Source: a bacterium
GTDB lineage: Bacteria; Vulcanimicrobiota; JABDET01
Length of the DNA: 64,000 bases
NCBI GenBank assembly: GCA_021817145.1
Contig: JAKAVV010000007.1
Span: forward strand, 66,957 to 130,956
Direction of reading: 5' to 3'
Shown here: in pieces, positions 9,364 to 64,000 of the stretch
Position numbering within the stretch: position 1 is the stretch's first letter
Layout: every line of letters starts with the position of its first letter
Notes under the pieces: generated by a model
What the model saw: only the letters and a program-made list of their open reading frames with translations
Told to the model about the DNA's origin: nothing
Database searches by the model: none
Program-made: the position numbers and the translations under genes

Positions 9364-9409
9364 CTTCTTCCCTATTTAAAAAAACAATGATCTATGATAT
9401 AATAAAGAG

Positions 9410-10372
9410 GTGAACTTTCATCTCCCAAAAGGGAAATCAATTGGAAAAGAGGTAACAAGGAGCTTAAAAATCCTTTTTGCGACTGCAGCAGTGTTTTTCC
9501 TCCTGTCATCAAGAAAATCCGCTGAAGGAATCCCTGCTGCGATACCCCTCTATCCTTTTAAGAAGATCGTTCTGCCTTTTTCAATTACCAATAAAAAGAA
9601 TATTGTTGTGCAAGGAGAGATCCGCGGGATTCCTGTCCATTTAATTATAGACACAGGAATGGATGCCCCTTTAATTCTCAGCAGATCCTTTTGTTCTGAA
9701 GTCGGGCTTCCACTCAAAAAAGATGCCAATCCTGACCAAAACTACAGCGCTGTCCTTCATCTTTTTGGCAGGAAACAAGAGGAAACAGGCCATGTTTTAA
9801 AAAGTTTTTCTCTCAGATTAAACAGGGAAAATTTTCGAATGAGGAAAAGTCTCGAAGTTTCTGATTTTTCTTATTTTACCCATCATCCTGACAAATATCA
9901 GGGGATTATAGGATGGGGATTTTTCCACGATTTTTTTGTCAAATTTGACTTCCCGAACCGAGAAATCATCCTCGAACACGCAGATTCTACCCCTCCTTCC
10001 TTTCAAAACGGAATACACATTTCTGATGGATTTATCCCAATTATTTCAGTCCGTATCCTTAATAAATCTATTCCATTCCTTCTGGATACAGGCTCACCTC
10101 AATCCTGGATCTCCTATAAATCCCTCAATAAACTGGTTAAAATTCCGATCTTTGCCTCTGTTCCTGGAAATTTAAAAGGAACCATAAAAGTGGACTCTTT
10201 ACAAGTGGGCAGGATCCATGTCCATGGTCTCTCCATCAATGTTATTGGGGGATTTTTCGCTCAAAGCCAGAATAAGAACTTTCAGGGGATCCTTGGACTA
10301 AATGCTTTAAAAACGACAGCAGTCATGTTAGACCCAACTCATAAAATAGCATTAATTAAAGAAAAATATTAA
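9410..10372 (+). CDS. Secreted aspartic protease, clan AA (two D-T-G lobes)
   Basis: Two D(T/S)G catalytic motifs are present (IDTGMDAPLIL and LDTGSPQSWIS). The N-terminus is hydrophobic. Confidence 0.55.
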   Translation: MNFHLPKGKSIGKEVTRSLKILFATAAVFFLLSSRKSAEGIPAAIPLYPFKKIVLPFSITNKKNIVVQGEIRGIPVHLIIDTGMDAPLILSRSFCSEVGLPLKKDANPDQNYSAVLHLFGRKQEETGHVLKSFSLRLNRENFRMRKSLEVSDFSYFTHHPDKYQGIIGWGFFHDFFVKFDFPNREIILEHADSTPPSFQNGIHISDGFIPIISVRILNKSIPFLLDTGSPQSWISYKSLNKLVKIPIFASVPGNLKGTIKVDSLQVGRIHVHGLSINVIGGFFAQSQNKNFQGILGLNALKTTAVMLDPTHKIALIKEKY

Positions 10373-10392
10373 GAGAAAAGAGGGGGAAAACC

Positions 10393-11289
10393 GTGCAAAA
10401 AATATTCACCCAGCGGCAAGTGAAAAAAATTTGGAAAAGTCTGCCAACAATTGAAGGAGCAGGGGTTCATCTCAACCGAGTGTTTGGGTTCCATCAAGTT
10501 CCCAAACTTGACCCTTTTCTGCTCTTAGATGATTTTCGTTCAGAAAATCCTGAAGAGTATAAAGCAGGTTTTCCCTGGCATCCACACCGCGGGATTGAGA
10601 CTATCACATACGTTTTAGATGGAGATGTGGAACATAAAGACAGCATTGGAAATTCAGGAGTTATTTCTGCAGGAGATATTCAATGGATGACTGCTGGCAG
10701 CGGAATCATTCATCAAGAAATGCCTCAGGGAAATCGCAGAGGAGAAATGTTTGGGTTTCAGCTCTGGGCAAATCTCCCCGCGAAATCAAAAATGATTCAT
10801 CCACGCTACCGCGATATTAAACAAAAAGATATCCCCCTTGTAAAAACTCAAGATGGAGCTGAAATACGAGTCATAGCAGGGGAGATTGAAGGGATAAAAG
10901 GACCAATTACAGAGGTTGTCATTAATCCTGAATATTTAGATGTAACCATTCCTCCAGGAAAACGATTTACTCATCCTGTCCAGGAAGGACATACTGTTTT
11001 CTCATACGTTATCGAAGGGGAAGGGGATTTCAACCCTGAGACAGACAAGACTCCTGTCAATTCTGAAAGATCTTTATGCGGAAACGGAACCCTTGTTTTA
11101 TATGGAGAGGGGGATGGTGTGACAATTGCTGCAAGCAGCCGCTCTGTTCGATTCCTGCTTATTTCTGGGAAGCCGATTCATGAACCGGTTGCCTGGTACG
11201 GGCCCATTGTCATGAATACTCAGGAAGAGCTGCGAAGAGCGTTTCAAGAGTATCATGATGGAAGTTTTACTGCGCGCCCATCGGAATAA
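10393..11289 (+). CDS. Pirin-family protein (cupin)
   Basis: The metal-binding pirin motif HPHRGIETITYVLDG is present. A 298-aa size is typical for pirin. Confidence 0.85.
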   Translation: MQKIFTQRQVKKIWKSLPTIEGAGVHLNRVFGFHQVPKLDPFLLLDDFRSENPEEYKAGFPWHPHRGIETITYVLDGDVEHKDSIGNSGVISAGDIQWMTAGSGIIHQEMPQGNRRGEMFGFQLWANLPAKSKMIHPRYRDIKQKDIPLVKTQDGAEIRVIAGEIEGIKGPITEVVINPEYLDVTIPPGKRFTHPVQEGHTVFSYVIEGEGDFNPETDKTPVNSERSLCGNGTLVLYGEGDGVTIAASSRSVRFLLISGKPIHEPVAWYGPIVMNTQEELRRAFQEYHDGSFTARPSE

Positions 11290-48656: not shown

Positions 48657-51600
48657 ATGAAGCGCTCTTTCCTTTTTATCTTTTGGGTTCTTTTTTTTGT
48701 ATTTCCTGTTTTTATGGCTTATGGAAAGCTGGATAGATCAGGTTTTATCTCCCCTCGCGATCTGCGCCCAGGGATGGTTGGATACGGCAAAACGGTTTTT
48801 GAAGGAACTAAAATTTCAACCTTTAAAGTTGTCGTTTTAGGGGTTATTCCGAAATTTATTTCAGGAGCAGATTTGATTCTTGTTAAAGTGGAAAGCCCTT
48901 ATCTTCTCAAAAGAGGAATTGGTCTTGTTGCTGGAATGAGCGGATCTCCTGTGTATTTTGACGGGAAATTAGCAGGGGCTGTCGCTTATGGATGGCCCTT
49001 TACAAAAGCCGCGATCGCAGGGGTTGTCCCAATTAATGCCATGCTGACCACGAATCTTCCCGAAAAAGCTCCCAATCTTGCTTATGGAGGAACCTATCAT
49101 CTTGGAAAAGCAATGAGTATTGAAGGGAAAAAGGTCAATACGATTGTGGCTCAGCTCCCTGGGGAAGGAAATCAAGAAAATTCAGAAAGTTTGCCGAATT
49201 CTTTATCACTGGTTCCATTAAGCGGAATTCTAGCTGCTTCAGGATTTAACCCATCAGGATTTGCGGCTCTTGGGAAGATTTTCCCTATGGCTGAAATTGT
49301 TCCAGGCGGGGGGAAAATGAAGATTAAAGATCCTCCTCCTGTTGAACCAGGACAGTCTGTTGGGGTTGCTTTAATGGAAGGGGACATGAATCTGATTGCA
49401 ACCGGCACTTTGACTTATCGCAGTGGATCTCGGATTTTAGCTTTTGGGCATCCTTTTCTTTTTCTTGGGAACGTGGATTTCCCAATGGTCCAAACCTACG
49501 TCCACTATATCCTTCCCAGCATGGAACTCCCTTTTAAATTTGCCTCTCCTATTCGACCTGTTGGGCAGATTGCTCAAGATAGACTGTATGGGATTGGAGG
49601 AGTTTTAGGTAAATCCGCTTCTCTTGTTCCTATTAACATTACTGTTTTTGATAAAGAGAGAAAAGTCAGAAAAGAGTTTCATGTTAGAATTATTCGATCT
49701 CCAATCTTAACTCCGAGACTGGCTACATTGGCTATCAGCCAGGCGATTCCCGCTGTCACAAAGCTGCTGGGAGGAGCGACTGCATCTGTTGATTACACGA
49801 TTCAATTTCAGGGATATCCACCAATTAGAAAGAGAAATTTACTTTTTTCTCAAGCGAGCATTTCAGCGATAACCACTTTTGACGTGCTTGATCCACTACA
49901 GAAAATTTTGGAGAATAATTTTAAAAAGGTTCATTTAGTGAAAATCAATGTGAAAGTTAATGTGAAACCAGGGATTATGGCAGCCACTATTCAAAAAGTG
50001 GTTTTAGACAGGCATACCATAAAACCAGGAGGACTCCTGGGGATAAGGGTCTGGCTGAAGCCCTATGACAAAAAAGTTGTTGAAAAGCGGTTCAGAATAA
50101 GAATCCCTGCCGATGTTCAAGGGATAGTTCAGGTTGGTATTGCTGGTGGACCTGCGAATAATTTGTTGAAAAGAAATATGAGTATTCCCCCTCCTGCTCC
50201 ATTAAATGTAAAAGAGATGATCCAGCAGGTTCAGGAGGCTCCTCCTTTTAATTCTTTGATTATTCGTCTTTCACTTCCTAGAGGGGCTCTTAATTGGAAA
50301 GGGGAGTCTTTCTCCAATTTCCCTTCTGCTTATGCCAATTTGCTGAAGGCGTCTGGCTCAGGCTCTTTAACCCTTCATTCTGACAGCTTGAAACAGGTGT
50401 ACAGGATGCCCTGGGTTATTTTAGGAAGCACAATTAAACATGTCATGATTGAAGTGAGCCCTCAGCCAAAGCTGAAGCAGACTCCTATCCCACCGGTTCA
50501 ACCCCATCCTGTTTTCTTTGATCCAGCAGATAGTTTGCATCCTCTTTTTATAGACACTTCTTATTCTGCGGCTGCTCCTCTGGTTACTAATCATAAAGTG
50601 ATCCACAATCCGCAGCAAACAGTAACAAAAAGAGTTCTCCCTCCTTTGCCATCTCTGCCTACTGCGAATTCGCTGATCCCAAGCAATTTAGTGACAGTGT
50701 CATTTGATCAGTTGCAGAACTGGCAGCAAGGAACTTTGAAGAATCTGGCTGTTTCTCCAAAAGGGGATCTTTTTGCAGCTCCTGCCGTAAAAATTCTTGG
50801 GCATTTTAAAGAAAATAACCTTTTATCCATCACTGGATTCAAGGGAGCGCAGTATGTGGGCACTGCTGATCCTGGAAGAATTTATAAAGTGGCAAATGGA
50901 AAAAAAGTTTTATTTTTTAACCCTAAAACCATGGGTGTTCTGAGCATGGCATCTCTTTCAAATGGAGATCTGCTGGCAGGCACGATGAATGGAAGGATTT
51001 TCTGGCTTAATTCAAAGGGGAAGATAATCCACTGGTATCATCTTCCCGAGAAATACATTTGGGATATTGTACCCTATCGAAAAAAGATTTATATTGCTGC
51101 TGGGAATCCAAGTGGGGTTGTTTATGAGTTAAATCTTCTTGCTCCCAGTCACCCCCCTGTTCTTCTTGCAAAAACGGAGGAATCTCATATTACAGCCATC
51201 TATCCTGAGAAACATTACCTTTATGCTGGAACAGCAAATAATGGACTGCTGCTGAGAATTTATCCGGATGGGGTGGTTCAAACTGCTGCTGATTTGAATG
51301 CTCAGGAAATTCTTTCTCTTACAGGAAATTCTGCTGGGGATCTGTATATTGGCGTTTCAGGGAATGGGATGATCTATTGTCTGAGTCCAGATGGCAGTCT
51401 GCGCCTTTTAACCCAGCTCCCATCAAAAGATATAACCTGGCTTGGAGAAAGAAAAGGAAATCTTTTTGCTGGAACAGGAATTCCAGCCAGGCTTTATGCT
51501 GTCCAATCTGATGGTTCTGTATCTCTTTTATGGGATGGCAGTCCTTCACATAAAAGCATGCCTGAGATCGGATTGAAAGGGAATAAAAGCGGAAAGGATT

Positions 51601-52574
51601 TTATTGTTTCGGGAAATTCATCATCCCTTTTCCATTTTTCAGAGAAAGAATTTAAGAAAGGAGTCTTTTTATCTCAAATTTTGGATGCGGGGAATGGTTC
51701 TTTATGGGGAAGATTACTCTGGTATGGGAAAACGCCTCCAGGCTCCAGAATTCTCGTTAAAACCAGGACAGGGAATACTCCTTTTCCTGATTCTACCTGG
51801 AGTTCGTGGTCATCCCCTTATCCATCTTCAGGGAAAACGATTCTGAGTTCGGGAAGATATTTGCAGTTTAAGGTTTCTCTTTTTAGAGATTCAGAAGGAA
51901 GATCTCCTGTGATGAAAGGAGTGCAGCTGTTTTGGAAGCCTGAAAACTTACCCCCTGTGATCAATGTTCTGCTGCCAAAATCAGGAGATGTGATTGATTC
52001 CAAGTCCCTTCTGCGAGGAACACTGCAAGATGCAGAGGGGAACACTTTATTATTTGAAATCTGGACTGAAAGAAAAGGGATAGAGAAAAAAGTTTATTCG
52101 AATCTTTTTTCCACTCCTGTAAAAGGGGTAACCCCCTTTATGATCCCATTGAGTTTTATCCATCAGAATGGAATTTTAAACTTGAAAATTCTGGTTTCCA
52201 ATTCCCCTTCTAATTTGCCTGGTAATATTTTAAAAAAAGAGATGACCATTAAAAATTTAACGTTTGATTCCACAACTCCTGAGGTTGTTTTAACTAAAAT
52301 TTATACTCGAAATCAAACCCTTCATCTCCAGGGGAAAGCGTATGATTTCGGAAGTTATGTTAAAAATATTCAGGTGCGCATGAATGAAGGCCCGTGGTTT
52401 GAGACTGTTCCTGAAAATGGAATTTTTGATTCGAAAAAAGAAAGATTTTACTTTAATTTTTCAGGGATCCCTGTTTCAACCATCAAGCAGATTCAAGTCC
52501 GAGCTTCTAATGCTGCAGGGAATCAATTTACAGTTACAAAGCAGCTCAAAGAGCTGCTGGCAAAAGGAGGATAA
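48657..52574 (+). CDS. Large secreted multidomain protein with an N-terminal trypsin-fold (S55/SpoIVB-like) protease domain, β-propeller repeats and C-terminal Ig-like region
   Basis: A signal peptide is present. GMSGSPVY matches the GxSGSP Ser-protease motif. Repeated NG(R/L)I...DG blades lie around aa 860-1000. The ORF is 1305 aa. Confidence 0.55.
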   Translation: MKRSFLFIFWVLFFVFPVFMAYGKLDRSGFISPRDLRPGMVGYGKTVFEGTKISTFKVVVLGVIPKFISGADLILVKVESPYLLKRGIGLVAGMSGSPVYFDGKLAGAVAYGWPFTKAAIAGVVPINAMLTTNLPEKAPNLAYGGTYHLGKAMSIEGKKVNTIVAQLPGEGNQENSESLPNSLSLVPLSGILAASGFNPSGFAALGKIFPMAEIVPGGGKMKIKDPPPVEPGQSVGVALMEGDMNLIATGTLTYRSGSRILAFGHPFLFLGNVDFPMVQTYVHYILPSMELPFKFASPIRPVGQIAQDRLYGIGGVLGKSASLVPINITVFDKERKVRKEFHVRIIRSPILTPRLATLAISQAIPAVTKLLGGATASVDYTIQFQGYPPIRKRNLLFSQASISAITTFDVLDPLQKILENNFKKVHLVKINVKVNVKPGIMAATIQKVVLDRHTIKPGGLLGIRVWLKPYDKKVVEKRFRIRIPADVQGIVQVGIAGGPANNLLKRNMSIPPPAPLNVKEMIQQVQEAPPFNSLIIRLSLPRGALNWKGESFSNFPSAYANLLKASGSGSLTLHSDSLKQVYRMPWVILGSTIKHVMIEVSPQPKLKQTPIPPVQPHPVFFDPADSLHPLFIDTSYSAAAPLVTNHKVIHNPQQTVTKRVLPPLPSLPTANSLIPSNLVTVSFDQLQNWQQGTLKNLAVSPKGDLFAAPAVKILGHFKENNLLSITGFKGAQYVGTADPGRIYKVANGKKVLFFNPKTMGVLSMASLSNGDLLAGTMNGRIFWLNSKGKIIHWYHLPEKYIWDIVPYRKKIYIAAGNPSGVVYELNLLAPSHPPVLLAKTEESHITAIYPEKHYLYAGTANNGLLLRIYPDGVVQTAADLNAQEILSLTGNSAGDLYIGVSGNGMIYCLSPDGSLRLLTQLPSKDITWLGERKGNLFAGTGIPARLYAVQSDGSVSLLWDGSPSHKSMPEIGLKGNKSGKDFIVSGNSSSLFHFSEKEFKKGVFLSQILDAGNGSLWGRLLWYGKTPPGSRILVKTRTGNTPFPDSTWSSWSSPYPSSGKTILSSGRYLQFKVSLFRDSEGRSPVMKGVQLFWKPENLPPVINVLLPKSGDVIDSKSLLRGTLQDAEGNTLLFEIWTERKGIEKKVYSNLFSTPVKGVTPFMIPLSFIHQNGILNLKILVSNSPSNLPGNILKKEMTIKNLTFDSTTPEVVLTKIYTRNQTLHLQGKAYDFGSYVKNIQVRMNEGPWFETVPENGIFDSKKERFYFNFSGIPVSTIKQIQVRASNAAGNQFTVTKQLKELLAKGG

Positions 52575-53560: not shown

Positions 53561-55219
53561 ATGTCAGTTGGACTTGTTCTTGGAACCAGAGAATCTTCTC
53601 CCCTTGAGTTTTGGGTCGGAGTGGAAGAAGGGGAGTATCTTCAGCTCGATGATCTGGTAACTGTTCAAACAGAAGTTCCTGGAAAAAATGAAACGGTCAC
53701 ATTTTATGGAGTAGTGGATTTTGTCGCTAAAAAATTTGAAGGGACGCAGTTTGACTCAGATACCGCTTTAGCAGTAGGCGGGGTTTTGCCTGTTACCCTT
53801 TCTCATGCAGCCCATGTGGTGGTTACCAGGATTGAACCTGAACGATACATCCCTCCCCATCCAGGAAATAAAGTTTACCGCTGCACAGGGGACCAGGTCA
53901 GCCATGGGCTTTATTTTGATAGAATGGAGAAAAAGATCCCTGTTGGATTAAGCAAAACAGGGGATCCGATTTACTTAAATTGGGAGTTTTTAAATGGAGA
54001 AAAAGGGGCTCATGTCAGTATTTCAGGGATATCGGGGATTGCCACAAAAACGACGTTTGCCACTTTTCTTTTGTACAGTTTATTTCACTCAGGAGTTTTA
54101 GGAAATGAAGCTCCTAATACCCATGCTATTATTTTCAATGTTAAAGGGGAGGATCTGCTTTTTTTAGATAGGAAAAACAAAAAGTTTTCGGAAGAAGAGA
54201 AAAAAAAGTATGAGAGATTGAATTTAAGCCTTTCCCCTTTTGAATCTGTCTCCTTCCATGCCCCTGCAAAACCTCATGAATCTCTTTTAATCCCTGCCAC
54301 AACAACAAGAACCCAGGATGTCAAACCATTTTTCTGGACATTAAGACAGGTTGCCAGAGAAAGACTGCTTGGGTATTTCTTTGAAGAAGGGGGGGAAGAC
54401 CTGGGAATGATGGAACACGCGATCTCTGTTTTAATGGAAAAGCTGTTCCAGTTAGCTCAAGATGATAAACCAGATGATACCCCTTTGGTTTCGCAGTCTG
54501 GTTCTATGATGAATTCTCTGGATGATTTGCTAAATGATTTGCGTGACCATCCGGATGACTGGTATGGTTCAACACAAGTCGCTTCTCAAACTCAAAGAGC
54601 AATTTTTAGAAGACTGAGCCAGGCTCTGCAGCATGGCGGTTCACTGGTTAGACCCCTGCCCCCTGCCAGCAAATTATCCGATTATCAAATCTCCTGGAAA
54701 GAAAAACAGTTGACTGTGATTGACCTGCATACCCTGCAGTCAGGAGCAAAAATGTTTGTGGTAGGATCTGTTTTAAAGAAAGTTTTCGAAGAAAAAGAAA
54801 AAACAGGGACTGCTCTTCCCCGCGTTTTTATTGTTGTGGATGAATTGAACAAATACGCTCCAAGAGATGGCTGGAGCCCGATTAAAAACAAACTGCTGGA
54901 TATTGCTGAAAGAGGGAGAAGTCTTGGGATTATTTTAATTGGAGCCCAGCAGACAGCCAGTGAAGTGGAGCGAAGGATCTTTGGAAATGCCGCGATTAAA
55001 GTGGCGGGAAGACTGGATGCTTCAGAAGCAGAACACTCGGAGTACGATTTTTTAACCACGACTTTCAGGAAAAGAGCGATCATGCTGAATCCAGGAACCA
55101 TGATTATCACTCAACCCGATGTTCCAACCCCTGTTTTGATCCAGACCCCTTTCCCCTTATGGGCAACTCGTCCTCAAGAAGCCGAAGTTCCTGAAGATTT
55201 GTTTGAAAAGATTTTTTAA
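53561..55219 (+). CDS. HerA/DUF87-family ATPase (HAS-barrel plus RecA-like core), solitary
   Basis: An N-terminal HAS-barrel-like region is present. The Walker B is VFIVVDELNKYAP and the C-terminal motif is ILIGAQQTASEV ... IKVAGRL. The Walker A is atypical, reading GISGIATKTT. Confidence 0.6.
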   Translation: MSVGLVLGTRESSPLEFWVGVEEGEYLQLDDLVTVQTEVPGKNETVTFYGVVDFVAKKFEGTQFDSDTALAVGGVLPVTLSHAAHVVVTRIEPERYIPPHPGNKVYRCTGDQVSHGLYFDRMEKKIPVGLSKTGDPIYLNWEFLNGEKGAHVSISGISGIATKTTFATFLLYSLFHSGVLGNEAPNTHAIIFNVKGEDLLFLDRKNKKFSEEEKKKYERLNLSLSPFESVSFHAPAKPHESLLIPATTTRTQDVKPFFWTLRQVARERLLGYFFEEGGEDLGMMEHAISVLMEKLFQLAQDDKPDDTPLVSQSGSMMNSLDDLLNDLRDHPDDWYGSTQVASQTQRAIFRRLSQALQHGGSLVRPLPPASKLSDYQISWKEKQLTVIDLHTLQSGAKMFVVGSVLKKVFEEKEKTGTALPRVFIVVDELNKYAPRDGWSPIKNKLLDIAERGRSLGIILIGAQQTASEVERRIFGNAAIKVAGRLDASEAEHSEYDFLTTTFRKRAIMLNPGTMIITQPDVPTPVLIQTPFPLWATRPQEAEVPEDLFEKIF

Positions 55220-55314: not shown

Positions 55315-55530
55315 ATGGACGCTAGTGTGCCCTCCTGTAGGATGCCTGAAACTTGGTGCGGTTATAACTGCGATGCGCAATGCCTGCATTGTTGCCCTAT
55401 ACATGGCTGTTGTGATCATTGTAATGATGCTTGCATGTGTCGTTTGGGCAATTGCTGCTCAGGAATACCTCCAGGAACCATACACTCAACTGCAACTTCC
55501 TGTCGAAACAGCTGTCTTTGCCCTGATTAG
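55315..55530 (+). CDS. Very Cys-rich 71-aa ORF; alternatively the overlapping +1 frame 55325..55546 encodes a single-TM peptide
   Basis: TG-rich DNA gives Cys codons in one frame and a VVIIVMMLACVVWAIAA helix in the other. The true coding frame is unresolved. Confidence 0.2.
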   Translation: MDASVPSCRMPETWCGYNCDAQCLHCCPIHGCCDHCNDACMCRLGNCCSGIPPGTIHSTATSCRNSCLCPD

Positions 55531-55650
55531 AGCGTCTCCTGTTTAATTCAAAACTGCATGTTCTGCATCTTTCTCTTTTTCTTGTTTAAAGTTTCAGAAG
55601 GATTTAATCCTTTTTTGACAAAATTTTCGGGGTAGGATCTAGGAGGTGAT

Positions 55651-56616
55651 TTGGGGATCAGAACTCTCGATCTTTTTGCAGGGTGTGGTGGGAGCAGTCA
55701 GGGTGCCCGCTATGCAGGGTGTGAGATTGTTTCAGCCATTGATAAATGGAAACTGGCTGAGACTACTTTTAAGGATAATTTCCCAAAAACGCGTTTTTAC
55801 TGTGAGGAGATGGACTCCTTTACTTCAAAGCGGATACGCGCCGAGTTTAATAACATTGATTTGATTCTGGCGTCTCCTGAGTGTACAAATCATACCTGTG
55901 CTAAAGGAGGTGTTCGACGCTCTGAGGATATACGCTCTGAGGATAGCAGAAAGACGGCATTTCACGTTCTTAAGTTCGCCAAAGAGTTAATGCCTCGCTG
56001 GATTGTTATCGAAAATGTAACCCAGATGAGATCATGGTCCAGATATGCCGAATTTATCGAGAGTTTGCGCAGGGCGGGATCGGGGTATCAGGTCCGTGAG
56101 CAGGTTCTAAATTCGGCCGATTTCGGTGTGCCGCAGCGGAGGGTACGCCTGTTCATCCTTTGTGATCGAAAAAGAAAACCTCCTGAGGTGTTGCCGACTA
56201 GAAGAAGATGGGTCCCTATTGGTAAGTTTCTTGAAATGAACGGGAAATATTCATTAACGCCGCTTTATAGTAAGGGGCGTGCTGAGCGTACTATAGAACG
56301 TGCGAGACGAGCCATTAAGGAGCTCGAGAGAGATACACCCTTTCTCATTGTGTATTACGGCAACGATTCAGCGGGTGGCTGGCAGAGGCTGGATGCCCCG
56401 CTTCGCACGATTACGACGCTGGATCGTTTTGCCCTTGTCAGAAAGGAGGGTCGGTACTTAATGAGAATGCTGCAGGTTCCGGAACTGCAGGCTGCCATGG
56501 GATTTCCTGACAATTACAAATTTGAATTTGGGAGCAGGAGAGAAAAAATTCACTTACTGGGCAACGCCGTCTGTCCACCTGTTATGAAGGCGGTTGTTTC
56601 TCGCCTTACACATTGA
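55651..56616 (+). CDS. DNA (cytosine-5)-methyltransferase
   Basis: Motif I is LDLFAGCGG, motif IV is the PC-like ASPEC, motif VI is VIENV and motif VIII is VPQRRVRLFI. This gene marks the start of the higher-G+C island. Confidence 0.8.
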   Translation: MGIRTLDLFAGCGGSSQGARYAGCEIVSAIDKWKLAETTFKDNFPKTRFYCEEMDSFTSKRIRAEFNNIDLILASPECTNHTCAKGGVRRSEDIRSEDSRKTAFHVLKFAKELMPRWIVIENVTQMRSWSRYAEFIESLRRAGSGYQVREQVLNSADFGVPQRRVRLFILCDRKRKPPEVLPTRRRWVPIGKFLEMNGKYSLTPLYSKGRAERTIERARRAIKELERDTPFLIVYYGNDSAGGWQRLDAPLRTITTLDRFALVRKEGRYLMRMLQVPELQAAMGFPDNYKFEFGSRREKIHLLGNAVCPPVMKAVVSRLTH

Positions 56617-57305
56617 GGCAACTGGACGAGGCTAAGCTCAGGTTTTTCACCAGGAAATTGCTGGCCTGGTCCAGAGACAATCTTCGTAGCTATCCCTGGC
56701 GGAGAACCCGTAGTCCGTATCGCGTACTTATTGCGGAGCTCATGCTTCGGAGGACGCGGGCAGATCAGGTATTACCAGTCTATCGCCTTTTCATGCGTCG
56801 GTTTCCAACCCTGCGAGATTTCCTTGGCGGCACCGCGCAGGAGATACTAAAATTACTGAAACCGCTCGGGTTGCGCTGGAGGGCCAGGAATTTTATTTCC
56901 TTGCGCGATTATCTTGAAAAACATTCTATAAAGGTGTTGCCTCTCGAGTATCGCCTGCTGACGGCAATGCCCGGCATCGGCGATTATGTGGCCCGTGCCT
57001 TGCTTTGTTTTACAGGTGAATCGCCCGTTTACTTAGTGGACGTGAACGTAATCAGGCTTGTATGTAGATTCTTTGGATACCAAAATAATCCGGAACTCAG
57101 ACGGCGGAAATGGTTCCGTGAAATCATGGAGGCTTTGACCCTGCGGAAAAGGTGCCGCGAGTTTGTGCAGGTGACTCTGGATTTACCTGCCACGGTTTGC
57201 TTACCGAAAAAGCCAAAATGTGGGATATGTCCCTTGTTCCGGCGATGCTCTTATGGAGCTATGCTGTCGGTACCGCCGGATAACATGGGAAAGACCATTC
57301 TTTAA
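56613..57305 (+). CDS. HhH-GPD superfamily DNA glycosylase (EndoIII/MutY/Mig family) with a [4Fe-4S] cluster loop
   Basis: The helix-hairpin-helix is LTAMPGIGDYVARALL and the catalytic Asp region is LVDVNVIRL. The FCL motif is C-x6-C-x2-C-x5-C (CLPKKPKCGICPLFRRC). A TTG start overlaps the methyltransferase stop. Confidence 0.75.
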   Translation: MRQLDEAKLRFFTRKLLAWSRDNLRSYPWRRTRSPYRVLIAELMLRRTRADQVLPVYRLFMRRFPTLRDFLGGTAQEILKLLKPLGLRWRARNFISLRDYLEKHSIKVLPLEYRLLTAMPGIGDYVARALLCFTGESPVYLVDVNVIRLVCRFFGYQNNPELRRRKWFREIMEALTLRKRCREFVQVTLDLPATVCLPKKPKCGICPLFRRCSYGAMLSVPPDNMGKTIL

Positions 57306-57574
57306 GCGTTCGATTTCCCTATGCAGACGATTATATTCCTTGCTTCCACAACCACCCAGGCCAACTTGGATACCCATAGGCAATGAAGGAATAGTCTCGT
57401 CTGAGCAGGAATGATCGTTTAAAGCGTTTAATTCAGCAGGAAATCGGGAGGCCGGGAATACCTGAATCACCCTGAATGGAACGTGACCACTCCCCGGAAA
57501 AATCAGGTCAGTTCGCCGGCGGATTCAGGAGGTTGGACGTATTCCTGGCCAAGGAAATTGGAGGGTCATAGAGG

Positions 57575-58669
57575 GTGGCAGAAAACCCGGACGCGGCTTC
57601 ACTAAAATTTGCAGACCTCCTTTCCCAGAGGAAGTGGGAGAGTTATGAGCAATTTGTCTCCGAGGCGCCCGGATTCTATCAACAGGAACTCGAAGAGGAC
57701 ATCAAGCGCGAAGAAGGTCTGCGCGAAAAGATCAGGAAAGACCTTCTCCTTCACAAGTTCGAAGTAAAGAGCTACCGCGATCAGCTTGGTGAGGCAGAGA
57801 AGCTTCTTTTCTCAGGACGTGTTATAGCCATAGACGGGACCGTCTCAAAATTTAAAACCCTCTCAGGCCTGCGCTGCCAGATCGGCGTGGTGGCGGTAAA
57901 CTACTTCAATGATATGGTAAGGAAAGCTTACTTCATCTCAGAAGCCAGCCTCCGCAATGAGGAAAGCGAAGTCCTGGAAATCATCAAGAACCGCGAACAG
58001 CGCAATCGTCTCCTCTCTGACATGGTGGTCAGGGCACTTATGCTTTACCGCGAAAGGGAAGTTGCCATGAGGTCCGAGTATCTGGAAAGTTTCAGAATGC
58101 TGCACGGCCCTCTCCTTCCATTTGAGCTCATGACAGGCCTCGGACGCTTAAGGGCCCTGGAAGCAACGCTGGGGATACTCCAGTCGGTGGCAGCCGATCC
58201 AAAGTGCTTCAGCATTATTTCGGCCTCCACCCACGATGACTACCTGACGCTCGGGATGGCTCTTGAGCCGGGCGAATATATGCGGGACCCGAATTTCTCG
58301 CTCGGAGATGAGATAGCAGAAAACAAGGACTTCATGGTGGCTGAAAAATGGCGAGAATCTGAATTCGAAAGAGTAAAGGGTTTCTTGAGGACATTCGCTG
58401 ATAAGATTCACATAGGAATAATCCGGGTGTCCGGACACCCTTACGTGTTTTACGCCCACAAGGACACGTTTGATCTTGCAGTAGCCATTATCGCAAGAGA
58501 CTCCTTGCTCCAGAAGGAAAAAGGCTTCCCGTTGCTGGTGGACTATGCAGACACACTTTGCTCCGAATTCTTCCCTCCAGGGGACTTCACCGGTCAACTT
58601 TTATACAAACTTGCACAGGAAGGACACTTCCTTTCCGAAATAAGTGAAAGGGCTTTGCGTCAAAAATAA
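57575..58669 (+). CDS. NurA-like nuclease (putative)
   Basis: RVIAIDGTVSKF resembles the NurA catalytic 'hhAIDGS' motif. The ORF overlaps the downstream HerA-like gene by 26 bp. Confidence 0.45.
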   Translation: MAENPDAASLKFADLLSQRKWESYEQFVSEAPGFYQQELEEDIKREEGLREKIRKDLLLHKFEVKSYRDQLGEAEKLLFSGRVIAIDGTVSKFKTLSGLRCQIGVVAVNYFNDMVRKAYFISEASLRNEESEVLEIIKNREQRNRLLSDMVVRALMLYREREVAMRSEYLESFRMLHGPLLPFELMTGLGRLRALEATLGILQSVAADPKCFSIISASTHDDYLTLGMALEPGEYMRDPNFSLGDEIAENKDFMVAEKWRESEFERVKGFLRTFADKIHIGIIRVSGHPYVFYAHKDTFDLAVAIIARDSLLQKEKGFPLLVDYADTLCSEFFPPGDFTGQLLYKLAQEGHFLSEISERALRQK

Positions 58670-60368
58670 GGAGGACTTCATGACCGAAATCATAACAGGG
58701 GAAGCGCAGAAAGGTACCGATAAAACAACCCCCTCGCAGCAGCGAAAGGATCCCCTCGGGTTCGTGAATTTTGACGGGTCTTCTGGAGACAACAGCCTCG
58801 TCGATGTGCGGGTACCCCAGGATAGAATCGAAAGAATAAGGCGGGGGCAGTACGTGTTATTGATTGAGTCCAAAGGGGGAGATTCCTACCTGGGGCGCGT
58901 AACCAAAGGCCCCTTCTATAACCCGGACGCGGTCGGGCGTGACTCGGGCTTTGCGAAAGCCTCAATCCTCATGGGAGACAAAGTAAAATTCCTGCCGGAC
59001 TACCACGCAGTTTGCATGGTGGAAATCCTGGGAAGCGTATATCTGGACACCCTGTCGCTGAGCGGCCATACAACACGTCCCCTTCCAAAGACATTCGTCT
59101 GGGAACTCGATGAAAATAAGATTGAGGAATTACTGAATCTCAGGGGAAACATGTACCTGGGACACCTCGCGGGCTACGAGGGTGTCCGAGTTCACTTCCA
59201 GGCAGGCGACAAAAGGGTATTGCCTCGAAACGTCGGCATTTTCGGGACAGTGGGTTCCGGAAAAACCAACACCTCTCAGGTCCTGATCGAAGAGGCCTCT
59301 GCAGCAGGGTATGCTGTCGCCGTCCTTGACGTGGAAGGCGAGTACGTTTCCATGGACAGATCGAGCGAAGAGTTATCCGTCAGTCCCAGGTTGCGGGAAG
59401 CCGCCAGTCGCTTTGGAATTTCCCCTCGCGGAATCGACAGCCTGCGCGTTTACCGGGTGACGGGAACCGAGTCAAAGAGAAAGGATGCCATCGAGTTCTG
59501 CATAAAATTCGGAGACATTTCCCCGTACACACTGTGCGAGATAATGGGGCTCAACGAAGCTCAGGAACATAGATTTCTTGAACTCTACGACACTGCAGTG
59601 GAATCAGTGAGATCCGGCAAACAGCAACCCGGCGCGAAATCAAAGTGGGACAGACTCAAGGGTGGAGAAGCGGTGGTAGGGTTGGATCGCATCCCGGAAC
59701 TTACGTTGCAACTTCTCATTGATAAACTGCGAACAGACTTTCTCACGGGATCAAAGGGAGCCGACCGGTCCTCCTGGCTTAAGGTGAACCAGTTGCTCCA
59801 TAAACTGAAGCGATACCAGATTTTTGATACACACGAACAGGGATTGAACGTAAACGACCTTCTGACGCCAGGTCGGGTGAGCATATTTGATCTGAGCGAT
59901 TCCACCAACACGAGAATCAATAACATTGTCATCGCAGACATTCTCAGGCGCGTTTTTGATCACAAACTGAACAACGAAGATGCTCCTCCGACCCTGATCA
60001 TGATTGAGGAAGCGCATACTTTTGTAAGCCGCGAAAACGTATCGAAAATGGAATTTACAGTGGATCAGCTTCGGGAAATCAGCAGAAGAGGGCGCAAGCG
60101 ATGGCTGGGACTCTGCTTCATCTCCCAGCAGCCTGCTCATCTTCCTGACGAGCTGTACGAGCTCTGCAACACAAAAATCATTCACCAGACGACCGGCAAG
60201 AAAAACCTGGATGCCCTTCGCACTTCTGCAGGAAATGTGAACGAAGCGGTCTGGAGCGAAGTCCCGATCCTGGGCCAAGGTCGTAGCGTGATCATCAGCC
60301 CGCAGTTCACGCACCCCGTTCTCTGCGACATGAGGCCATGTCAGACGCACAGGGAATACACGGATTGA
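58644..60368 (+). CDS. HerA/DUF87-family ATPase
   Basis: The Walker A GIFGTVGSGKTNTSQ and Walker B LIMIEEAHTFVS are present. The C-terminal motif is CFISQQPAHL...CNTKIIHQ. Confidence 0.75.
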   Translation: MKGLCVKNKEDFMTEIITGEAQKGTDKTTPSQQRKDPLGFVNFDGSSGDNSLVDVRVPQDRIERIRRGQYVLLIESKGGDSYLGRVTKGPFYNPDAVGRDSGFAKASILMGDKVKFLPDYHAVCMVEILGSVYLDTLSLSGHTTRPLPKTFVWELDENKIEELLNLRGNMYLGHLAGYEGVRVHFQAGDKRVLPRNVGIFGTVGSGKTNTSQVLIEEASAAGYAVAVLDVEGEYVSMDRSSEELSVSPRLREAASRFGISPRGIDSLRVYRVTGTESKRKDAIEFCIKFGDISPYTLCEIMGLNEAQEHRFLELYDTAVESVRSGKQQPGAKSKWDRLKGGEAVVGLDRIPELTLQLLIDKLRTDFLTGSKGADRSSWLKVNQLLHKLKRYQIFDTHEQGLNVNDLLTPGRVSIFDLSDSTNTRINNIVIADILRRVFDHKLNNEDAPPTLIMIEEAHTFVSRENVSKMEFTVDQLREISRRGRKRWLGLCFISQQPAHLPDELYELCNTKIIHQTTGKKNLDALRTSAGNVNEAVWSEVPILGQGRSVIISPQFTHPVLCDMRPCQTHREYTD

Positions 60369-60372
60369 CAGG

Positions 60373-62625
60373 ATGAAGCAGCAGACAGAAACGGGCTCTG
60401 GTCAGGCGAAATTCAGGCCAAAGGCGCGGCTGGTTTCGATCCTCGGTGAGCATCTCATCCGGGATGGAACGGTTGGAATACTCGAGCTGGTCAAAAATGG
60501 TTACGATGCCGACGCATGCACGGTGAACGTGGAGCTACACGATCTCCAAAATCCCGAAGCAACGCGAATCATTGTAAAGGATGACGGGGTAGGAATGACC
60601 CTCAATCAGTTTTTGCATGAATGGCTGGAACCGGCATCTGGTCATAAGGAGCTCCAGAAGAAAAGAGGGCAGAGAACACAAAAAGGGCGCCTGCCTCTTG
60701 GCGAAAAAGGGGTAGGCCGGTTTGCCGCACACAAGCTGGGAAAATCCCTACACCTGATCACAAGGGCGAAGAATTCGCCGGTGGAGGTGGTGGTTGAAAT
60801 CGACTGGGGAGACTTTGATGATCCGGAAAAATTCCTCGACGATGTTACGGTGAATTGGGTCGAACGAAAGCCCGATGAATTTCCAGGAGATAGCAGCGGC
60901 ACATCGCTGGATATGCGCGGGGCGCGGGAAGCCTGGAGCCAGAAAGACCTCAAGCGACTTCATCGCGCCCTGACGACCCTTATGAGTCCCTTTAAAGGCC
61001 CGAAGAATTTCACCGTTAACCTCAAGTGTCCAGAATATCCACAGTATGAAAGCCTCGTGCCAGCAGCAATTTTCGACCGGGCTCATTACGTTTTTACGGG
61101 AATTATTGACGAACGCGGCACCCTCGAATACGAATACGCTTGCAGGCTACCCCAGTTCAAACCTCGCAATGAAAAGGGTAAAGTGAACCTTCCTCAATCC
61201 ATTAAAGGATGGCTTCCCTCCGATCGCCAGAGCCAATGCGGACCATTTATCCTTCAGCTTTACTACTGGGACCGCAGGAAAGAATATCTGGATCCAGTCG
61301 GCCTCAACAAGAAGGATATCGATCGAATCAATGGTGTCACAATATTCAGAGATGGAATCCGAATTCTGCCATACGGGGATCCAGAGGATGACTGGCTTGG
61401 CCTGAACGCGAGGCGTGTTGACATCCCAACAGAGCGTATCAGCACAGACGGTGTTGTTGCCTCAGTGGAAATAAATCAGGCAGAGAACCCGGGTCTGCGT
61501 GATAAGACAAATCGGGAGGGCCTGATAGAAAACGCTGCCTTCGTGGACATGAAGGATCTCGTGTTTGAAGCCATCACTACCGTATTCGAAGAAGAATGGT
61601 TCAGAGACAGACCCAGGAAAGAGAGCAATCCTGCAAGCACAGTAGAGGCAGCCAGTGGAAAGCTTAAAGAAAACGTCAGGGAGCTGTCATTGCAGAAGAG
61701 CAAAATAACAGAAATCGCCGGTCAGGTTGAAAGCATCGTCAAAGGCGGCGGGAAGATTCCGAAGCCCGTTCACGAACTGCTGGAGACCGTAAATCCACTG
61801 ATCATAACCACATCCACACTCGCAGCAAGTGCAAACGAGTTGAAGACCGCCCATGAAGAGATAGCTCGGGAGTTTGATCTTGAAAGAGATGTACTCCTCG
61901 GGATGGCTGGTCTGGGCCTTGCAGCCGAACGCTTTACCCACGAGTTTGCAAGGCTCACGAGGGAAGCTTCGCAGAATCTGAAGAAACTCAAGACATCGCT
62001 GGGACAGGCAAGTCCGGAGGCCTCAAGATACCTTGAAGCCCTTGAAGCAGCGCTCGATGCCCTTCGAAATGACATCCTTTCTCTCGGTCCCCTGTTCTAC
62101 GTAAGGCGGCCGACGAGGGAGAAATCCCTTTCCGTCAAAAGAGTTATAGATAACGTGTTGCTCCTCAATGCACAGCAAATCAAAGAAGCAAGGATACAGG
62201 TAGAAGTGAAGGAGAAGTTTCCCATTACAGTCGTCATGCGCGAAGGGCAGTGCACGCAGGTATTTAACAACCTCGTTGACAACGCAGTTTTCTGGCTTTC
62301 GAGAAAATCTCAGCAAGACGACAGGAAACTCAAAATCGTGATTGATGGCGACAGCCGTTCCGTCCTGGTCACGGATAACGGTCCCGGTGTCCTTCCGAAA
62401 TATGTCGACCGGCTCTTCCAGCCATTTTTCTCGACTAAACCGGAAGCCAGGGCAGAAGGAAGAGGCCTCGGTCTTTATATATCACGGGAAACATTGAAGC
62501 TTGTTGGAGGGACAATTTCTCTGACAGGCAGTAGTTCAGATGAAGAAGCATTCCCAACAGGAGCAGCGTTCGAGGTGATTTTTCCTGAGACAGCAACCCG
62601 CGAGACGGAAGGTCGAGGAGCATGA
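60373..62625 (+). CDS. Hybrid protein: N-terminal GHKL (MORC/Hsp90-type HATPase) domain plus C-terminal histidine-kinase core (DHp-like region plus HATPase_c)
   Basis: The N-terminal region has ILELVKNGYDADA (N-box), VKDDGVGMT (G1) and GEKGVGRFAAHKLG (G2). The C-terminal region has ERFTHEFARLT (candidate H-box), NLVDNAVFW (N), VTDNGPGV (G1) and GRGLGLYISRETLKLVGG (G2). Confidence 0.65.
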   Translation: MKQQTETGSGQAKFRPKARLVSILGEHLIRDGTVGILELVKNGYDADACTVNVELHDLQNPEATRIIVKDDGVGMTLNQFLHEWLEPASGHKELQKKRGQRTQKGRLPLGEKGVGRFAAHKLGKSLHLITRAKNSPVEVVVEIDWGDFDDPEKFLDDVTVNWVERKPDEFPGDSSGTSLDMRGAREAWSQKDLKRLHRALTTLMSPFKGPKNFTVNLKCPEYPQYESLVPAAIFDRAHYVFTGIIDERGTLEYEYACRLPQFKPRNEKGKVNLPQSIKGWLPSDRQSQCGPFILQLYYWDRRKEYLDPVGLNKKDIDRINGVTIFRDGIRILPYGDPEDDWLGLNARRVDIPTERISTDGVVASVEINQAENPGLRDKTNREGLIENAAFVDMKDLVFEAITTVFEEEWFRDRPRKESNPASTVEAASGKLKENVRELSLQKSKITEIAGQVESIVKGGGKIPKPVHELLETVNPLIITTSTLAASANELKTAHEEIAREFDLERDVLLGMAGLGLAAERFTHEFARLTREASQNLKKLKTSLGQASPEASRYLEALEAALDALRNDILSLGPLFYVRRPTREKSLSVKRVIDNVLLLNAQQIKEARIQVEVKEKFPITVVMREGQCTQVFNNLVDNAVFWLSRKSQQDDRKLKIVIDGDSRSVLVTDNGPGVLPKYVDRLFQPFFSTKPEARAEGRGLGLYISRETLKLVGGTISLTGSSSDEEAFPTGAAFEVIFPETATRETEGRGA

Positions 62626-63791
62626 AAGTCATCTTGCTGGATGATCACGCCGATACAATGGAGGAAGCTATCAGGTCCATTCGTGATTCGGGTGTGCAAT
62701 GTGAGCCCCTCAGGAACATCAGCGAACTCGAAAACTTACTGAACAAAGGTGAACCCTTTGATGGTGTAATCCTCGACTGGTTCCTGGACGACGAACCGGA
62801 CTCCAACCTTGCTAAAATTAGTCTGCAGAAGATAAGGGAGCATAGATTCGTCCCCGTCTTCGTTTACACCGAACACCGTACAGAATATGAAAGAGAAGCT
62901 GACTCGATTGATTTTCCTAGATCCTGCATAAGCTCCTTCAGCAAGAAAGCTTTGCCCGAGTCCAATCTTGGCGCGAAGATCAAGGAATGGCTTGACGGGT
63001 TTTTCGCAGGAAAAATTTCCAGAAGCTGGCGGAAAGCAAACCAGGGCGCAATCGAGAAGGTTCTCTATGAACTGGCCAGCATGGACGATGACGGAGTTGT
63101 AGGCTCCCTACAACGCATGATCCAGAGTGAAAATGGAGAAGCATACGACGTTGATCACGCCCTTGAGTTGCTGCACCGAATCAGCGTGCGAGTGCTGTCG
63201 AATGATGCGAAACTGCGGAGCATCCTTAAAAGTTGCTTAAAGTCCAAAACAAACAATAAAAAAGCGACTGAAATGAAAATTTGGCAATTCCACATGTATT
63301 ACCAGCCAGGCGGCGACATCGTCAGGGCTGGTGACATTGTTCAGAGCAAACGGGACAGTCATGAGGAAATGGAATATTTCGTAATCCTTACCCCGGCCTG
63401 CGATCTCGCCCAGTTTAAAACCACATACCTGCGTCTCGTGAGAATGATCCCACATAACTTCGCTGATGGAGAACCACCTCGACACCTTTATTTCCTCCCG
63501 TTCGTTCCGCTGGATGCCACGAAGATCGCTGATTTTGCAATTGACTTTCATCAGTCCTTTGCGGTTCGCAATGAGAGCATCGAACAGGAATGGCAAAAGC
63601 TACAGAAGGAGAAAGGTCAGAAAAAACTGCCAAAGATCAACATGGCTTACAGCCACAAGTATCAAGAGATGTCTGGAGAAGGAATCGTCTTGAAGTGCAT
63701 TGCCCGCCTGGATGATCCTTACAGATCCGATCTTTTCCAAAAATTCTCCTCCCACGCAAGCAGAATTGGAGTACCAGATGTGTCGAGCTAA
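62622..63791 (+). CDS. Receiver (REC)-domain protein with an uncharacterised roughly 260-aa C-terminal domain
   Basis: The N-terminus MKVILLDDHADTMEE...FDGVILDWFL has the acidic pocket and a phospho-acceptor Asp candidate. The start overlaps the kinase stop as ATGA. Confidence 0.5.
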   Translation: MKVILLDDHADTMEEAIRSIRDSGVQCEPLRNISELENLLNKGEPFDGVILDWFLDDEPDSNLAKISLQKIREHRFVPVFVYTEHRTEYEREADSIDFPRSCISSFSKKALPESNLGAKIKEWLDGFFAGKISRSWRKANQGAIEKVLYELASMDDDGVVGSLQRMIQSENGEAYDVDHALELLHRISVRVLSNDAKLRSILKSCLKSKTNNKKATEMKIWQFHMYYQPGGDIVRAGDIVQSKRDSHEEMEYFVILTPACDLAQFKTTYLRLVRMIPHNFADGEPPRHLYFLPFVPLDATKIADFAIDFHQSFAVRNESIEQEWQKLQKEKGQKKLPKINMAYSHKYQEMSGEGIVLKCIARLDDPYRSDLFQKFSSHASRIGVPDVSS

Positions 63792-64000
63792 CACGAATTC
63801 CAAATGAGGCTCACCATGAGGTGTGATCGTGAAATTTTCAAGCATTAAAATAAAACCTGACGTAAGTAACCTTCCTGACCTGCGGCATCCCTTCTGGATA
63901 GCATCCAGTCACCTGACGCAAACCGAAAGTGCCATCGATAGGTGGGCAGAGTATGAGCCAGCTGCTCTCACCCTCAAGACAAGCATGAAAACTCCAACTC

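Follow-up and report, generated by a model that had tools for sequence, protein, structure and literature searches.

The Pfam families HEF_HK (PF19191) and Response_reg_2 (PF19192) were defined from linked pairs of kinase-like and receiver-like genes (Bellieny-Rabelo, Pretorius & Moleleki 2021, Genome Biol Evol; PMC8011034). HEF_HK proteins are soluble, the linkage of kinase-like and receiver-like genes reaches 91.6%, and the dominant architecture, 'group 1', joins HATPase_c_3, HEF_HK and HATPase_c domains (174 of 222 proteins). The same study found C5 methylase and Vsr genes over-represented near HEF_HK genes, described the family as descended from paraMORC ATPases and proposed HATPase_c_3 as a possible intracellular sensor. 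The paraMORCs combine a GHKL-S5 module with a nuclease or TIR domain at the C-terminus and are encoded beside DCM and Vsr genes (Iyer, Abhiman & Aravind 2008; PMC2292703). In Detocs, the histidine of a kinase and the aspartate of a receiver are both needed for phage defense, which acts via a non-transcriptional effector (Rousset et al. 2023, bioRxiv 10.1101/2023.01.24.525353). Here, we characterize a gene for a kinase with two GHKL modules (60373-62625) in a 64,000-nucleotide stretch of a bacterial genome of the Vulcanimicrobiota (contig JAKAVV010000007.1 of assembly GCA_021817145.1, positions 66,957 to 130,956), referred to as the window, and compare its locus with these systems.

With moderate confidence, we read the window kinase as the signaling subunit of a restriction-modification (R-M)-like cassette, located on a GC-rich mobile island, in which defense is gated by a phosphorelay. 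An initial annotation of the window had recognized the two ATPase modules and suggested that the MORC-like one might serve as signal input, for example by sensing DNA or a nucleic acid state relayed by the adjacent HerA and NurA genes. It missed a cognate receiver gene directly downstream as well as C5 methylase and glycosylase genes upstream. These neighbors reframe the kinase as part of an R-M-like cassette instead of a free-standing signaling protein.

A soluble kinase with two GHKL modules

The open reading frame (ORF) is present as initially annotated and encodes 750 residues on the + strand, which also carries all other window genes described below. Its product is soluble and combines a MORC/Hsp90-type ATPase module with a coiled coil, a His523-bearing DHp domain and the catalytic (CA) domain of a kinase. 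This assignment as a paraMORC-type ATPase module joined to a HEF_HK-type histidine kinase core draws on Pfam, homologs, a structural model and fold matches. From the N-terminus, a GHKL (Bergerat) ATPase domain (residues ~30-185; 60460-60927) is followed by an alpha/beta, transducer-like middle domain (residues ~186-387; 60928-61533), a long helical or coiled-coil linker defined by model helices and weak conservation (residues ~388-510; 61534-61902), a HEF_HK-type DHp helical hairpin with the predicted phospho-acceptor H523 in an invariant H-E-F (residues ~511-575; 61903-62097) and the CA GHKL domain (residues ~580-742; 62110-62598).

The presence of two GHKL modules in one polypeptide is borne out by Pfam matches to HATPase_c_3 (residues 36-177, E 4.8e-20, 72 bits with a cutoff of 25) and HATPase_c (residues 626-740, E 3.9e-22, 79 bits with a cutoff of 26.4), and both domains are present in all 24 subclade relatives. 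The HEF_HK model matches over the FTHEF motif (residues 514-574, E 0.0027), with 18.6 bits below its cutoff of 24.1; 14 of the 24 aligned subclade kinases match it at E<=0.01, the best at 8.3e-7. All motifs quoted in the initial annotation could be located in the ORF: E38-LVK-N42-GYDADA, D70-D-G72-V-G74-MT, G110-EKGVGRFAAHKLG and F521-T-H523-E-F525. Residues ~510-745 match many sensor kinases in NCBIfam and in a search of solved-structure sequences. The histidine of FTHEF, proposed earlier as the putative phospho-acceptor, falls on the H-box histidine ('AHELNQPL') of YF1/FixL (4gcz), with the N, G1, F and G2 boxes in register. In sequence searches, the N-terminal region resembles BbrUII/HgiDII restriction enzymes over their GHKL part. 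We found no transmembrane helix in the kinase (maximum 19-residue Kyte-Doolittle hydropathy of 1.09) and, in Pfam and NCBIfam, no PAS, GAF or other sensor domain, so that the earlier description of a protein lacking membrane segments and classical sensors is upheld.

An AlphaFold2 model was built from 24 homologs (pLDDT 79). It shows an alpha/beta ATPase domain at ~30-185, an alpha/beta middle domain at ~186-387, very long helices between 388 and 570 and a C-terminal ATPase domain at 584-740. The helices span residues 388-412, 420-457, 464-543 and 548-570, the last two forming a hairpin around H523, as anticipated by the initial annotation. In Foldseek searches against the PDB, the DHp and CA half matches HK853, YF1 and ZraS with E of about 1e-11, while the N-terminal ~450 residues match MORC3 (5ix2), MORC4 (7k7t), SMCHD1 (6mw7), TRAP1 and GRP94. 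These MORC/Hsp90-type alignments extend over ~445-472 columns and span whole GHKL-plus-transducer ATPase modules. As modeled, the N-terminal half of the kinase appears to be a full GHKL-plus-transducer (MORC/Hsp90-like) module and not a mere nucleotide-binding pocket.

Conservation was analyzed in a subclade alignment (24 sequences, 40-52% identity) and in a broad set of 104 unique diverse homologs reaching down to 27% identity. Within the subclade, the N-terminal site (E38, N42, D70xG72xG74 and G110EKGVGRF117) is invariant, as is H523-E-F. The same holds for R326-D327, P333-Y-G335, D340-W-L342 and D377-K-x-N380-R381-E382-G383 in the middle domain. The CA domain is marked by N633/N637, D668xG670, F682/F685 and G696xG698LG700, of which N633, N637, G670, F682 and the G696xG698LG700 stretch are invariant. 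The linker (~388-510) is the least conserved part of the kinase, with low identity, many gaps and variable length in the family alignment. Because the core of both ATP sites and H523 are at least 95% conserved among the 104 homologs, the two ATP sites and the phospho-acceptor histidine are evidently under strong purifying selection. Such conservation rules out reading the protein as a 'dead' pseudokinase.

The receiver partner and the methylase-linked cassette

The kinase gene is translationally coupled to the next gene, whose start overlaps its stop codon (ATGA) and which encodes the cognate receiver-effector protein of 389 residues (62622-63791), here called response regulator-like (RR-like). 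In its model (pLDDT 87), a (beta-alpha)5 receiver (REC; residues 1-126) is followed by a helical linker (residues 128-225) and a beta-rich domain (residues 226-389). The REC profile matches solved receivers (E 1.6e-5), and the Pfam match to Response_reg_2 is weak (18.2 bits with a cutoff of 27). Using an iterated profile that joins the partners family-wide, the RR-like gene was found to adjoin the kinase gene, directly downstream, in 75 of 84 loci. In 78 unique partners drawn from widely differing taxa, the receiver pocket is well conserved (D8 91%, D52 97%, K108 97%). From the conservation of H523 and of D8, D52 and K108 in the partner we infer that His523 would autophosphorylate and transfer its phosphate to the partner aspartate.

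The beta-rich C-terminal domain is less easily placed. Across the same 78 partners its only conserved residues are G237, C260, D261, R381 and G383, and a conserved Cys-Asp pair of this kind is more typical of an enzyme. Residues 127-389 have no Pfam family, Foldseek with the model returned nothing but receiver matches, and a profile search of solved-structure sequences yielded no relative of the domain. Among 1.84 billion representative proteins the domain is present in only 70, practically always in the same architecture; it is also seen at ~320-500 in proteins of ~510-530 residues. A MazF/PemK-like toxin had come into consideration because of a 'GD(I/V)V...VVLTPxCDL' pattern and because Foldseek gave four weak 'PemK-like' matches in BFVD (E 0.015-0.07). 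This candidate was rejected after hhalign against E. coli MazF gave a probability of 0.65%, and kinship with PemK is at best a weak lead.

From 55651 on, upstream of the kinase, neighboring genes stand close together or overlap. The cassette starts with a C5 cytosine DNA methyltransferase of 321 residues (55651-56616; Pfam DNA_methylase, E 1.6e-40; PADLOC DrmMII-like, E 1.6e-105). It is followed by an HhH-GPD, Fe-S DNA glycosylase of the MutY/EndoIII-like type (56613-57305), identified by Pfam HhH-GPD and EndIII_4Fe-2S, TIGR mutY (E 2.5e-45) and a PADLOC match to 'Type II nicking endonuclease' (E 2.2e-33). Presumably, the glycosylase accompanies the C5 methylase as a repair enzyme for T:G mismatches, analogous to Vsr. 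Its position is variable and some cassettes lack it, while in the Thermincola cassette (locus L089, 858-2828) an HhH-GPD glycosylase and the C5 methylase are fused in one 656-residue protein. Methylase ORFs of 657-746 residues in loci L093, L098 and L099 may be similar glycosylase fusions.

The third gene encodes a conserved NurA-like protein of 364 residues (57575-58669) with invariant IDGT (D87), YRERE, HGPLLPFEL and EKGFPLLxDYAD motifs. The window protein itself has no Pfam match. Pfam NurA is matched by 3 of its 23 homologs, and the best match (Thermincola, 20.9 bits with a cutoff of 21) covers the N-terminal half of the Pfam model. Next, a HerA/FtsK-type hexameric ATPase of 574 residues from the first start codon (58644-60368) ends 4 nt before the kinase start; gene callers place its start at 58680, yielding 562 residues. 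It matches DUF87/HerA (E 4.8e-21), PADLOC HerA models (E 2e-22) and NCBIfam HerA/CedD, and its Walker A motif (GTVGSGKT) is visible. Scans of the region from 55 to 64 kb for promoters and terminators returned no more sites than shuffled sequence.

To describe linkage, we used neighborhoods anchored on the kinase (80 sampled genomic loci) and on the NurA-like gene (42 metagenomic loci), and for the latter counted as denominators those loci with enough contig to judge. The cassette order is C5 methylase, optional T:G-type glycosylase, NurA-like gene, HerA, kinase and receiver-effector. HerA lies immediately downstream of the NurA-like gene in 34 of 36 loci, the dual-GHKL kinase comes next in 25 of 26 (inverted but still adjacent in the exception), a C5 methylase is found upstream of the NurA-like gene in 27 of 28, and 16 of 22 NurA-like/HerA cassettes include an RR-like gene. 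The NurA-like family seems confined to the methylase/HerA/kinase cassette. Across the wider kinase family, the unit is smaller. About 65 of the 80 sampled loci consist of methylase, kinase and RR-like gene only, and in this sample HerA and NurA-like genes next to the kinase are restricted to the window's subclade (kinases at least ~39% identical). The adjacent HerA and probable NurA-like genes pointed out initially are therefore real and, within this subclade, conserved partners of the kinase, but they cannot be its general input because those ~65 loci pair the kinase and its partner with a C5 methylase alone. The other part of that suggestion, the MORC-like domain as input, is reasonable and had already been proposed for the family as intracellular sensing by HATPase_c_3 (PMC8011034).

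Where HerA-type cassettes lack the RR-like gene, unrelated genes follow the kinase, such as a 122-residue HNH protein, small ORFs, an ORF of at least 979 residues with a helicase-like DELH motif or a 755-residue protein (L089, 7953-8321; L090, 8357-9318; L106, 8182-11121; L123, 5844-8111). Some copies look decayed. In L007, an Ignavibacteria metagenome contig, HerA and the RR-like gene are each split in two ORFs (5504-7170, 9298-10520), and HerA is also split in L128. A further variant of the family (L016, L019, L030, L031, L062, L073) pairs kinases of ~900 residues with RR-like proteins of 480-512 residues and has its C5 methylase on the downstream, not the upstream, side.

Conservation of the window cassette spans bacteria and archaea (Chloroflexota, Ignavibacteria, Acidobacteria, Bacteroidota, Firmicutes, Woesearchaeota and Thaumarchaeota), and the same gene order recurs in Caldilinea, Ignavibacteria, Pyrinomonadaceae, Bacteroidota, Thermincola, a Woesearchaeote and Nitrosotenuis. 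Median identities to the window proteins over 33 cassettes are 54% for HerA, 46% for the NurA-like protein, 40% for the kinase, 26% for the RR-like protein and 24% for the methylase. Judged from such comparisons, methylases are exchanged between cassettes, and among the linked components the RR-like protein evolves fastest. By analogy, the two would resemble specificity or arms-race components.

The initial annotation had considered the signaling logic of the window kinase unusual. This impression did not survive the comparison since the architecture is the commonest HEF_HK form (174 of 222 proteins) and is widespread on chromosomes and conjugative plasmids; as it was published in 2021, it is not new. 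The dual-GHKL family comprises more than 1,800 protein clusters of full-length-type homologs, and at least 578 species-representative genomes contain relatives; the architecture is thus far beyond chance. Near-full-length kinase copies are found in 67 plasmid records. The PGAP labels of the genes are 'sensor histidine kinase', 'response regulator' and dcm on conjugative plasmids of Campylobacter jejuni and C. coli as well as on Acaryochloris pREB1. The C. jejuni plasmid pAR-0413-1 (L091, 12064-16529) carries a minimal triad of kinase, RR-like gene and convergent dcm. Triad hosts in C. jejuni and C. coli are conjugative MOBP/MPF_T plasmids, and the triad is flanked by type IV secretion genes on one side and a recombinase/VapD region on the other. 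Phage carriage of the family is essentially nil, uncultured fragments excepted.

The genomic setting suggests that the window cassette is located on a GC-rich mobile island. GC content jumps near 56 kb from ~0.41 to ~0.51, and the cassette block (~55600-64000) remains at 0.49-0.52, compared with about 0.41 in the remainder of the window. On the 785-kb contig DAIBGO010000001.1 (GCA_027421685.1; L001, 14824-17002), which contains the window, a PhdYeFM antitoxin and an rve-family integrase follow the cassette. Other cassette loci are flanked by integrase or conjugation genes; the Woesearchaeote cassette adjoins conjugation genes and the Nitrosotenuis cassette an integrase. No tRNA was found at the island edge.

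Three further features of the window are recorded here for completeness. At the GC jump, just 5' of the methylase, an ATG-initiated ORF of 71 residues with 17 cysteines (MDASVPSCRMPETWCGYNCDAQCLHCCPIHGCCDHCNDACMCRLGNCC...) is located at 55315-55530, preceded by an AGGAG box 7 nt upstream; public gene calls instead show an overlapping hydrophobic ORF of 73 residues in another frame (55325-55546). In the low-GC flank, a second, divergent HerA/FtsK-like ATPase of 552 residues (53561-55219) has no Pfam match and weak PADLOC matches (mad8, 2.6e-11; HerA, 2e-5). It has no NurA-like partner nearby and adjoins a 3-hydroxyacyl-CoA dehydrogenase gene. Unrelated to the cassette, a protein of 1305 residues (48657-52574) combines an N-terminal signal-like segment, Peptidase_S55 (SpoIVB-type) and long repeat-rich regions.

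A proposed phosphorelay-gated cassette and its rivals

In the mechanism we propose, the methylase would mark self DNA while the glycosylase would repair damage from 5-methylcytosine (5mC) deamination. The kinase would be a constitutive dimer held together by its DHp domain and coiled coil. Its two N-terminal GHKL modules would close in an ATP-dependent manner on DNA or on a non-self DNA state, as in MORC, MutL and GyrB. Closure would then be passed down the ~120-residue coiled coil and switch the DHp/CA core between kinase and phosphatase states. Phosphate on His523 would be handed to Asp52 of the partner, freeing its Cys-Asp effector domain as the output, and in the window subclade the HerA translocase and the NurA-like nuclease could then processively degrade the target DNA. 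The scheme would insert a His-Asp relay between sensor and effector, where paraMORC3 and paraMORC4 have a nuclease or TIR effector fused directly to GHKL-S5.

A more far-reaching version of this proposal is put forward only tentatively. The cassette might represent an unrecognized class of restriction-like immunity in which a MORC-type, ATP-gated clamp detects unmodified or foreign DNA and signals through a His-to-Asp relay to a Cys-dependent effector of new fold and a HerA/NurA-like shredder. If true, this would make the cassette the first restriction system gated by a phosphorelay, and it would offer a tractable model in prokaryotes for the coupling of MORC ATPase closure to signaling. The HerA/NurA-like variant is a good candidate for cloning and testing because it is compact (about 8 kb) and its gene order is strictly conserved across bacteria and archaea.

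Several points weigh against our interpretation. Defense, DNA sensing and phosphotransfer are, across the whole family, what we infer. The kinase, the RR-like protein and the NurA-like protein each lack a specific match to a PADLOC model, and nothing in the cassette proteins was recognized as an obvious reader of DNA sequence or methylation state. The assignment of the 364-residue protein to NurA is tentative, being based on the borderline matches in 3 of 23 homologs, and neither its profile nor one member searched against solved-structure sequences gave a NurA match. The transducer assignment of the kinase is a fold-level match with modest TM-scores of 0.41-0.48. Further, the RR-like effector domain has no recognizable fold relative or family in Foldseek, Pfam or profile searches. 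Finally, the RR-like gene is absent or replaced in 6 of 22 HerA-type cassettes, and therefore a phosphorelay partner is either not strictly required there or encoded elsewhere.

The latter finding bears on a different division of labor, in which the relay is a safety catch. Here, the paraMORC ATPase itself would restrict, remodeling or clamping DNA for HerA and the NurA-like protein, while kinase and receiver would report on or limit this activity, for instance by holding the effector in a phosphorylated, inactive state, comparable to the buffering by DtcB in Detocs, or by setting the timing of the response, and would not pass on an activating signal. Sensor kinases are commonly bifunctional kinase/phosphatases, and cassettes devoid of the RR-like gene still retain the core of NurA-like gene, HerA and kinase. 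GHKL-S5 modules of the MORC, MutL and GyrB type have also been described as engines of DNA or protein rearrangement in R-M systems (PMC2292703), and Detocs has a phosphate-buffering receiver (bioRxiv 10.1101/2023.01.24.525353). Nevertheless, we consider this arrangement unlikely: most of the family has methylase, kinase and RR-like gene only, so that in the absence of a nuclease gene the RR-like protein must supply the output, and its receiver pocket and Cys-Asp pair are conserved family-wide.

Control of the neighboring methylase or R-M genes by an ordinary two-component system responding to intracellular nucleotide levels is quite improbable in our view. It would agree with the PGAP labels and with the discussion by the family's authors of R-M-controlling cascades and of nucleoside triphosphate sensing by HATPase_c_3 (PMC8011034). 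However, the RR-like protein has no helix-turn-helix or other DNA-binding output domain (residues 127-389 are empty in Pfam and Foldseek gives receiver matches only) and instead carries the conserved Cys-Asp pair with its more enzyme-like character. Moreover, the N-terminal module appears to be a full GHKL-plus-transducer ATPase with a conserved catalytic Glu, and the pair is horizontally mobile with swapped methylases. We regard it as slightly less probable still that the locus is a DNA repair or element-maintenance module, in which HerA and the NurA-like protein would resect ends as in double-strand-break repair of archaea, the glycosylase would repair 5mC lesions and the kinase would signal damage or take part in post-segregational addiction. 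HerA-NurA is best known for end resection, and the MutY/EndoIII-like glycosylase in the cassette and the antitoxin and integrase on the island would fit such a role. R-M systems can also act as selfish addiction modules (PMC8011034), yet for R-M-like modules addiction and defense are not mutually exclusive. No Mre11 or Rad50 genes occur nearby in the loci examined, the NurA-like family keeps to the methylase-linked cassette, and the distribution over bacteria, archaea and plasmids is patchy and horizontally transferred, all of which speaks against repair or maintenance.

Comparison with described systems

By sequence comparison, the window kinase is a divergent member of the HEF_HK/paraMORC-kinase family. 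The window pair shares with HEF_HK/Response_reg_2 pairs the three-part architecture, solubility and a downstream receiver that has no known output domain, as well as a nearby C5 methylase, a gene for the repair of deaminated 5mC and an affinity to paraMORCs. Both window proteins remain below the Pfam gathering scores (18.6 against 24.1 bits and 18.2 against 27 bits), as befits a divergent branch, and the kinase is only 27-34% identical to most of the family. The window cassette has an HhH-GPD glycosylase where published loci have Vsr, and its subclade has NurA-like and HerA genes between methylase and kinase, which are unmentioned in PMC8011034. The combination of a GHKL kinase with HerA/NurA is likewise not mentioned in the Dnd/HerA 'capture system' paper or a BREX survey, and a full-text search for GHKL, HerA and NurA brought up no paper linking them. 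The cassette of methylase, NurA-like gene, HerA, kinase and, in part, receiver thus appears undescribed.

Like the paraMORCs, the window kinase starts with a GHKL domain whose ATP motifs are intact, continues with a transducer-like domain and carries extra functional domains at its C-terminus; its gene is likewise linked to genes for cytosine methylases and deamination repair and is patchily distributed and laterally mobile. The C-terminus of the window protein differs in being a histidine kinase core (DHp and second GHKL) and not an RE-fold nuclease or TIR domain, with the effector provided by a separate receiver protein. The kinase is classed cautiously as paraMORC-like, not as MORC. It is not a full-length member of the BbrUII/HgiDII family (NCBIfam NF050001), since it reaches 55.6 bits with a cutoff of 550, aligns only through residues 36-215 to model positions 25-196 of 659 and leaves the C-terminal nuclease part unmatched.

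The HerA/FtsK-type ATPase beside a probable partner nuclease or effector recalls archaeal HerA-NurA, SIR2-HerA and DUF4297-HerA, and the window HerA matches antiphage HerA models in PADLOC and NCBIfam. Its partner, though, belongs to a distinct 364-residue family with borderline NurA similarity, the pair is embedded in the methylase/kinase/receiver cassette, and the cassette contains no SIR2 or DUF4297. MADS and other PADLOC systems were considered as well and set aside, with HerA alone matching (mad8 and HerA models). In PADLOC, the kinase shows a weak match of its CA domain to PDC-M43B and matches of its GHKL region to REase_II models, while the RR-like and NurA-like proteins show no match. 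If the logic proposed above holds, the cassette would define a new family of HerA-partner nucleases together with a new effector fold marked by its conserved Cys-Asp pair.

The closest parallel in signaling logic is Detocs, the only phosphorelay experimentally shown to be used directly for phage defense. In both cases, the histidine of a cytoplasmic kinase and the aspartate of a receiver would gate a non-transcriptional effector domain. Homology is limited to the generic kinase and receiver domains, and the window cassette is not a Detocs system, as it has no TPR, PNP or stand-alone receiver gene and its kinase and partner have no specific PADLOC match. Detocs relies on TPR sensing, the stand-alone buffering receiver DtcB and mostly a PNP ATP-nucleosidase effector, and unlike the window cassette it lacks a methylase, a MORC-like module, HerA and NurA. 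With the same proviso, the window cassette would reveal possible signaling targets of a MORC-type ATPase and would extend two-component phosphorelay immunity, so far represented by Detocs, to methylation-based discrimination between self and non-self.

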